A DNA stretch of 64,000 bases from positions 19,778,001-19,842,000 of the forward strand of contig OX597823.1 in NCBI GenBank assembly GCA_951406725.2, read 5' to 3'. The notes below the pieces were generated by a model that saw only the letters and a program-made list of their open reading frames with translations, was not told the DNA's origin and made no database searches. Each line of letters opens with the position of its first letter. Positions within the stretch are counted from its first letter, which is position 1. Below are positions 59,161-60,268 of the stretch, one piece after another. Both the position numbers and the translations under genes were made by a program. Source of the DNA: Octopus vulgaris (taxonomy: Eukaryota).

Positions 59161-59987
59161 AGAGAGAGTAAAATATTTGGTGTATTGTAGAAATATAACC
59201 AGTTAATTGCACATACAAAGAAATCTTATATGGACCCCCAAAGGTCATGTAACCCTGGTTGAGAACCACTGACCTAAATAAAAGGGTCTATTGTATATTG
59301 TGTCTTTAGCGTAGCTAGAGTGTGTGCCGCTCGGGGCGGTCCTTACGTTTGCGCTCTCAGACCCCACAAAAACATATATTGCCTACAGCAGACCCCAAAA
59401 TGGTGCTCCTTTAAAAGTGCCGCCCCTACTTCCCCATTCCTAGCCACGCTAGTGTGTCGAGTTTTAAAATATTCTCGAAAAACCGATAGGAATTTATACG
59501 TGTTCTTAATAATTCTGTGTCTGTTCTTTATCTATACACAAACAAAAAGCTCAAAATTATGTTCCCGTCCAGTGATATCGAAAATAAGTGAGAAAAAGCA
59601 CTTTCTTCTTTTCTTTGCGTCAAAATCCATTCTCTCTTGACGGATGCTTACTCTGAACCCAGCAAAATCTGCACTCTAAGACTGGATCTTCTCCTGGATT
59701 AGGAAATGCTTCTGTCCCCATGAACCGCTGCAAAGCTTAGTGACACTCAACGATTTACTGTTCCCACATGTAGGAATGTGTGTTCCAATACACACAAACA
59801 TTACTTATTACATCTAGAAAAAGAATATTCGGTAGATTGCCATGAAATCCCTCTCTCTCTCTCTCTCTCTCTCTCACCAACCCCTGACAATAGGAGTCTT
59901 GTGTTCTACAGCTCTATATTTAAGAGACGAGGAATTATGTACATTATTTACATTTGACGGATATTTGTCCTCATCATGTTTGTTGTT

Positions 59988-60033
59988 AACACAACGTTTC
60001 GGCTGATATGCCCACCAGCCTTCATCAGATGTC
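59988..60033 (-). ncRNA. Canonical minimal type-I hammerhead
   Basis: gacat CTGATGA A GGCTG gtgggcatat CAGCC GAAA CG TT gtgtt. Confidence 0.85.
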
Positions 60034-60195
60034 TTGGGAAATTTCGAACCTGGGTTCTCATTTCTAAGGCATTTTTCGATATAATAATAATAATAATAAT
60101 AATAATAATAATAATAATAATAATAATAATAATAATAATAATAATAATAATAATAATAATAATATTATTATTATTATTATTATTATTATTATTTA

Positions 60196-60268
60196 GGTCT
60201 CTGCCTGGGATCGAACTCGGAATCTTAGGGTTAGTAGCCCGCGCTCTTAACCACTACGCCATATGCCC
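60196..60268 (-). pseudogene. tRNA-like head (Pol III A/B boxes)
   Basis: GGGCATATGGCGTAGTGGTTAAGAGCGCGGGCTACTAACCCTAAGATTCCGAGTTCGATCCCAGGCAGAGACC; acceptor stem imperfect. Confidence 0.8.

Follow-up and report, generated by a model that had tools for sequence, protein, structure and literature searches.

The window analysed here, a 64,000-nt stretch of the Octopus vulgaris genome, contains on its minus strand a short repeat that is almost certainly the pseudo-LTR (pLTR) of a Penelope/Poseidon-type element present in the source genome. The type of this element was judged by its sequence features rather than by a tree. The new feature is a putative tRNA-type promoter inside a Penelope pLTR. 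We regard as probable a reading in which the unit is a stand-alone pLTR copy, likely transcribed by RNA polymerase III (Pol III) from a tRNA-like head located in the 3' UTR of the element and inserted by the element's own RT/GIY-YIG protein.

The unit and its tRNA-like head

On the minus strand, the unit displays a head with A and B boxes, a linker and then a 175-nt segment that contains a hammerhead (Table 1). This order, read directly from the window, agrees with the preliminary description, which had also reported the lack of TTTT through the hammerhead; none is found on the minus strand over 59880-60275. The 5' boundary of the head had been set 6 nt short and is located at 60274, that is at -6 from the tRNA +1 (60268), the usual 5' end in the family. 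The window copy retains its tail, and neither an inverted partner nor an adjacent target duplication was found for it. The linker at 60081-60194 flips strand sense from (AAT)n to (ATT)n and is thus a self-complementary tract, as was also observed at another locus (L043).

Table 1. Features of the pLTR unit in the window (positions in the window; minus-strand features are given as noted for each element)
Feature	Position	Strand	Remark
tRNA-like head	60195..60274	-	94% to family majority over 89 nt from 60274
A box TGGCGTAGTGG	60251..60261	-	sequence reading
B box GAGTTCGATCC	60208..60218	-	sequence reading
(AAT)10(ATT)26 microsatellite linker	60081..60194	-	length widely variable among family copies
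pLTR body, 5' end of Penelope-type ORF	59940..60080	-	95% to family majority
Body ATG	60061-60059	-	majority ORF opens here
Minimal type I hammerhead	59988..60033	-	predicted from sequence; descriptor in PMC4209133
Hammerhead stem I, 5 bp including one U-G pair	60033-60029 / 59992-59988	-	
Hammerhead core CUGAUGA	60028-60022	-	one extra A after core
Hammerhead stem II, 8 bp	60020-60001	-	
Hammerhead GAAACGUU (GAAA-CG-UU)	60000-59993	-	
Predicted hammerhead cut	between 59993 and 59992	-	
Tailless 3' end of body	near 59940	-	
Tail, about 30 nt	59907..59939	-	one arm only in paired insertions; runs on into ORF in long copies

No tRNA was called by ARAGORN over the window, and a Rfam search over 59880-60300 with E values up to 10 retrieved neither a tRNA nor a hammerhead. 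The window head outscored 300/300 shuffles for 9 of the 10 host tRNA types sampled, with nearly tied scores for Ala(TGC), Arg(TCG) and Arg(TCT) (49, 48 and 47, respectively, among 10 anticodon types). The best tRNA match of the family-majority head is Arg(TCG). This majority keeps both boxes intact, and heads diverge from it by a median of 8.1% (n=68). The two boxes of the window head were assigned against the promoter-box consensus. In other organisms, A and B boxes follow the ORF in only one of 71 related loci (positive control 15/30; shuffles 8/600); hence the clade as a whole does not share the head.

The predicted hammerhead fits the minimal type I descriptor of metazoan PLEs as it is given in the available part of PMC4209133, namely a CUGANGA/GAAA core, an extra nucleotide before G10.1, a long stem II, a 4-5-bp stem I and a palindromic minimal stem III. 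Minimal hammerheads are described there as needing a dimer; in agreement, the window core is predicted to fold as a monomer into an extended stem and not into a three-way junction. The core is intact in 42 of 116 copies, and its sole common non-CpG variant affects the free position N7 (T 72%, A 23%). The predicted cut was also considered as a hotspot of 5' truncation and set aside as weak, with 7/40 at body positions 90-97 for about 3 expected, an excess that may be an alignment artefact.

Several other features were observed in the window. Two hammerhead-like motifs with a U3-A8 core variant (UUGAAAA...GAAACCGGU) are located on the plus strand at ~25078 and ~25850; one is common to locus L108, and they probably belong to another PLE-related repeat. 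The segment 60650-60900 is a truncated piece of a different repeat with a short inverted repeat around an (AT)n run, and at L087 a copy of this repeat carries the motif CUGAAGA...GAAA. The minus strand at 26788-26905 contains an isolated 5S rRNA copy of nearly full length (84 bits). Finally, a 39-bp tandem array of about 11 copies occupies 19301-19720, and an open frame that overlaps it is devoid of Pfam match.

The parent element and its insertions

The family is large. Exact matches in the source genome number 3,462 for the 30-nt tail and 1,395 for a head 25-mer, while reversed controls gave 0 in both cases. As 9 of 35 tails were exact, tailed copies can be roughly estimated at ~13,000; a similar estimate for heads was discarded since it rested on 1 exact match out of 30. 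Bodies diverge from the majority by a median of 5.7% (n=135). In a positional sample made of 70 of the first 71 places listed, a body was present at most 800 nt downstream of the head in 55/70 loci, which indicates that the association is not due to chance. As the sampling called for an exact match to the 25-mer at +1, truncations within the head escaped the count, and two of the locus pairs in this sample look duplicated. Among the first 90 exact-tail loci (contig C1), a head was found in one arm in 55; among similarity-picked loci with self excluded, a head lay upstream of the body in 19/29 and a body downstream of the head in 19/29.

The head and the body are both parts of a longer element, in which the ORF is followed by a stop, 23 nt, the head, (AAT)n, the body with its ATG and hammerhead, the tail and then the ORF again. 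When loci were searched with the endonuclease end, the head directly followed the ORF in 29/30 and head plus body did so in 28/30, the query locus being included. The 23 nt between stop and head start were also considered as a decayed inverted head, but outside the core palindrome the resemblance had no statistical support (P 0.43). At the other end, a 23-mer just inside the ORF has 145 matches with at most 1 mismatch, 42 of them exact; among 30 loci carrying it, the ORF 5' part was immediately preceded by the body in 25, and a head was present upstream in 4. One locus reads body, tail, ORF, head, (AAT)n and body (L256), another is a partial tandem (L393), and two begin at the head and continue into the ORF (L402 and L404). 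The pLTR thus consists of the 3' UTR and the ORF start, found at both ends or as a partial tandem (L256, L393, L402). In runs labelled as four other organisms, the ORF end, the head and the body were all covered; among the contigs listed, the ORF-head junction was bridged in three of the four runs, and loose ends clustered at the head start in three of the runs.

From ATG to final stop, the ORF spans ~827 codons and contains an RT followed by a GIY-YIG domain. In the majority sequence of the copies, a frame with RT motifs runs from the body ATG over 624 codons before a single frame slip. None of the copies displayed an intact ORF, the longest stop-free PLE stretch being 465 codons, and ORF copies differ from their majority by a median of 5.3% (n=66, similarity-picked). 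The RVT_1 profile matched L288 with an E value of 5.5e-10, and a translated search of the fetched loci detected a distant PLE RT beside several tails. The C-terminal motif YSIPC..C..YKGET...EH...DH aligns with GIY-YIG-type relatives, while the Pfam GIY-YIG profile gave no score on the copy at L304 and PF01541 was present in 2 of 120 relatives listed. The proteins of the nearest relatives share 60-72% identity with that of the element. L402 shares 47% identity over 121 aa with the N-terminus of a database protein (P0007; E 4e-32). This match begins within the body, which indicates that body and tail are coding. The hammerhead segment, previously viewed as the 3' segment of a candidate SINE, is the coding 5' end of a Penelope-type ORF. 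A Zn-finger-like CxxC linker between RT and EN, described as a Neptune/Nematis feature in the available part of PMC8557442, was absent from the element in the protein alignment and present in other host PLE ORFs. No relatives of the element were found in viral contigs.

Other PLEs of the host were considered as partner. A young family (L091-L093; contigs C16, C2, C5) has an intact 781-aa ORF with many such open frames, the CxxC linker, a UUGAUAA hammerhead variant and the same layout of an inverted arm plus tail. This family and the other Pfam GIY-YIG families were rejected, as they carry hammerhead variants of their own without homology to the body. An older PLE family (L141-L165), with ~75% identity among its copies, a hammerhead with a long stem II and a fixed 3' end of its own, came into question through a perfect tail match 1.9 kb from the young PLE at L093. 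It was ruled out because its copies end differently and body homology is absent, and the tail match at L093 is a separate short insertion.

The insertions bear the marks of EN+ PLEs, for which an inverted 5' copy, a one-sided 30-40-nt tail and a target-site duplication (TSD) are described (PMC8557442 and PMC3846280, in part). In the first 90 exact-tail loci of contig C1, an inverted body lay upstream in 46, and 44 of these 46 inverted arms were tailless, none of the 44 reaching past body position 148, which lies ~27 nt before the end of the tail. A flank word of at least 8 nt was common to both sides in 29/46 insertions vs 53 of 2,070 mismatched pairs, and one of at least 10 nt in 19/46 vs 1/2,070; target duplications measure 8-14 bp. 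The letter at N7 was identical in both arms in 33 of 34 insertions (P 6e-7 under independence). Copies are dispersed, single or head-to-head, with two discrete 3' ends. Beyond the tail, the only conserved sequence is the element ORF, the other flanks being unrelated.

These observations modify the initial proposal of a non-autonomous SINE mobilised by PLE machinery. The machinery is supported by the PLE insertion marks and the 3' segment proved to be Penelope-derived, while a separate class does not stand since the head is native to the element 3' UTR. The two findings that had been named as contrary to that proposal, a head and a hammerhead segment rarely adjacent elsewhere and a 3' segment devoid of PLE homology, were not encountered. 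A LINE-type 3' end with single-arm TPRT was not found, the 3' end being the start of a PLE ORF and the arms being twin.

At L390-L419, many insertions are chimeric, with a short ORF 5' piece fused to the start of a head or of a body piece, which suggests frequent template jumps. In addition, other repeats, similar to the 3' ends of R4/Dong LINEs, are found several times within the (AAT)n linker (L020, L025, L140, L007), and the linker seems to act as an insertion target.

Proposed transcription of the unit and alternative readings

Because the pLTR begins with a tRNA-like segment that bears promoter boxes, the short copies are likely to be read by Pol III, and the whole element possibly so, rather than by the usual Pol II. 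In a partial tandem, the A and B boxes would start the RNA ~6 nt upstream of the tRNA +1. This RNA would stop at a single TCTTT ~75 nt past the tail, giving a transcript of ~370 nt, or would read through the TTTT-free ORF. The element protein would then nick both target strands and start reverse transcription from two internal sites, yielding a tailed and a tailless arm. This step is drawn by analogy from Anolis Poseidon in vitro, whose protein, according to the available part of PMC11167929, nicks and extends both strands and initiates RT internally at two positions, which bound the tail. The cDNA would run off the RNA 5' end, where it would often fold back on a short palindrome or jump to another RNA. 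The hammerhead would cut solely as a dimer or with the help of protein; its cleavage is reported in the same source as dispensable for Anolis Poseidon in vitro.

The distribution of 5' ends points to Pol III, and so do the long copies at L402 and L404, which begin at the head and continue into the ORF. The 5' ends of 55 of the 70 head copies fall 0-7 nt upstream of the tRNA +1, where the rate of truncation further upstream would give about 2, and the remaining 15 reach 18-845 nt into the element. At L397, L413, L356 and L342, the start of the head directly abuts element pieces that are unrelated or distant, as is predicted by RT run-off at the RNA end. At the other end, 8 of 30 ORF-5' pieces stop 66-77 nt past the tail for ~1.4 expected, an interval chosen after the data had been seen; this cluster coincides with a TCTTT that occurs just once within the first 400 nt.

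The lack of Pol III terminators was assessed on the sense strand. The 2,615-nt majority contains 0 TTTT and 29 AAAA (shuffle P 0.007), and codon-aware tests of TTTT absence gave P 0.02-0.04. Real copies contain 42 TTTT in 93,933 nt (0.45 per kb), vs 81 in 25,595 nt (3.16 per kb) for 15 related families from metagenome contigs, left after 3 of 18 clusters had been removed for being under 900 nt; the TTTT comparison sets a majority sequence against single copies. Five other host PLE ORFs have 3-9 TTTT each. Since 2 of 15 control ORFs are likewise free of TTTT, its absence is modest evidence; in 2 of 6 controls, just one TTTT was present over the ORF and the 3' part.

The pile-up of 5' ends may have another origin. 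A fold-back junction of at least 7 nt is present in 20 of the 55 copies that start at 0-7 nt; the true 5' end is unplaceable at such junctions, and the pile-up could reflect a stalled RT and cDNA that folded back on the palindrome, which overlaps the start of the head. This fits a reading, which we consider rather unlikely, in which the head is a passenger, namely a tRNA-derived fragment that inserted a single time into the 3' UTR, the element being read by Pol II from its own or a read-through promoter. In rotifer Penelopes that bear Pol II-type motifs, such as the putative TATA/Inr motifs of Adineta Pen2a, self-priming has been described, as have palindromes at the 5' ends of the pLTRs (PMC3846280, in part), and transcription of the Drosophila Penelope of D. 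virilis is driven by an Inr/DPE promoter internal to the pLTR (PMC2377424, in part). Moreover, some related ORFs lack TTTT though they are headless. However, a hairpin in the template should stall the RT at its 3' base, within the head, and not at -6. The head starts that abut unrelated or distant pieces at the four loci cited above are what a run-off would give; the intact boxes of the majority and the TTTT-free unit likewise speak against a passenger.

Short copies clearly outnumber long ones, with 3,462 exact tails vs 42 exact 23-mers just inside the ORF, and ORF DNA lies near only 15 of 90 tail loci. Such an excess is what a true SINE would leave if Pol III transcribed ORF-free copies of head, body and tail, and if the Penelope protein then mobilised these anew in trans, so that most short copies derived from them. 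The short copy retains the promoter and both RT start sites, and cis-acting pLTRs sufficed for mobilisation in trans in a rotifer (PMC3846280, in part). We nevertheless hold this to be improbable. The head belongs to the long element itself, the subfamily variants (N7 A with 127 G) are common to ORF-linked and short copies, and a single RNA from a pLTR-ORF locus accounts for the short copies without any extra master. Furthermore, past the tail only the element ORF is conserved, and Anolis Poseidon is described as requiring its RNA to extend well past the first RT start site (PMC11167929, in part). As short copies end at the tail, they would probably be without downstream RNA for another round, and under the preferred reading of a stand-alone pLTR copy they are probably dead-end products of pLTR-ORF source loci and not self-propagating SINEs.

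Lastly, a tRNA SINE mobilised by LINEs and ending in (AAT)n might by chance have come to lie beside a hammerhead repeat of other origin. This would suit the 15 of 70 heads without a body within 800 nt and the linker that often hosts other repeats, but it can hardly be credited given the fixed order in 55/70 head loci and 28/30 ORF-end loci and target duplications that enclose whole twin units.

A further step, which can be proposed only tentatively, is that an autonomous Penelope-type element swapped its Pol II promoter for a captured tRNA gene. Its 2.6 kb would form one Pol III unit with a coding strand purged of TTTT; the ~370-nt RNA would give rise to the SINE-like copies, and the read-through RNA would serve as template and perhaps as an uncapped message.

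Known systems and meaning

Many traits of the octopus element are those of Penelope/Poseidon PLEs as described in the available parts of PMC11167929, PMC2377424, PMC3846280 and PMC8557442. These include a single ORF with RT and C-terminal GIY-YIG, a pLTR composed of the 3' UTR and the first codons with a minimal hammerhead near the ORF start, the position of the promoter in the pLTR, the one-sided ~30-nt tail, the inverted 5' arm and the 8-14-bp TSD. The pLTRs described there have promoters of Pol II type (Inr/DPE or putative TATA/Inr), whereas the octopus pLTR has an A/B-box head with (AAT)n. The octopus family also differs in that its short copies begin at the head and its sense strand is TTTT-free.

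A Pol III-type promoter together with a type I hammerhead in a short repeat is known from Sm-alpha and Sj-alpha of Schistosoma (PMC6765202 and PMC8490949, in part). By the description of citing papers, Sm-alpha is often in tandem, released by its ribozyme from multimers, and has no named autonomous partner; compared on that basis, the octopus unit is dispersed, head-to-head, equipped with a minimal hammerhead and part of a protein-coding PLE. The non-LTR retrozymes of animals are likewise short and non-coding, with type I hammerheads related to PLE pLTRs, and were proposed as non-autonomous PLE derivatives; in contrast to the octopus unit, those described in the available part of that work form head-to-tail tandem arrays and have no tRNA head, the word tRNA being absent from the preprint (bioRxiv 10.64898/2026.07.22.740005).

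Among the papers listed in the literature search, with subscription papers and Repbase reports poorly covered, none dealt with a pLTR that bears a tRNA head or with a tRNA SINE mobilised by PLEs, and nothing relevant came up for the octopus SINE names Twhin and OR1/OR2. The presence of a Pol III gene piece within the terminal repeat of a retroelement has a counterpart in the Cassandra TRIMs, whose LTRs contain 5S rRNA. Unlike the octopus pLTR, these are plant elements of the LTR class, non-autonomous and 5S-derived. A 2026 annotation of octopus repeats lists 893 unclassified recently active SINE families, and its available part does not describe this layout, although its library may include the family (PMC13282606). 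The family is also unmentioned in the available part of PMC8967140.

Repeat libraries may divide this family between 'SINE' and 'Penelope'. With a putative fixed RNA start and two putative fixed RT starts in thousands of copies, it would constitute a useful natural data set on the formation of PLE twin insertions. If the proposed transcription is true, SINE-like amplification would take place without a LINE, by the gain of a Pol III promoter in a Penelope-type terminal repeat, and the element would count among the rare protein-coding retroelements of animals that Pol III transcribes. If, in addition, the promoter was captured as tentatively proposed, a SINE and its partner would be united in one element.
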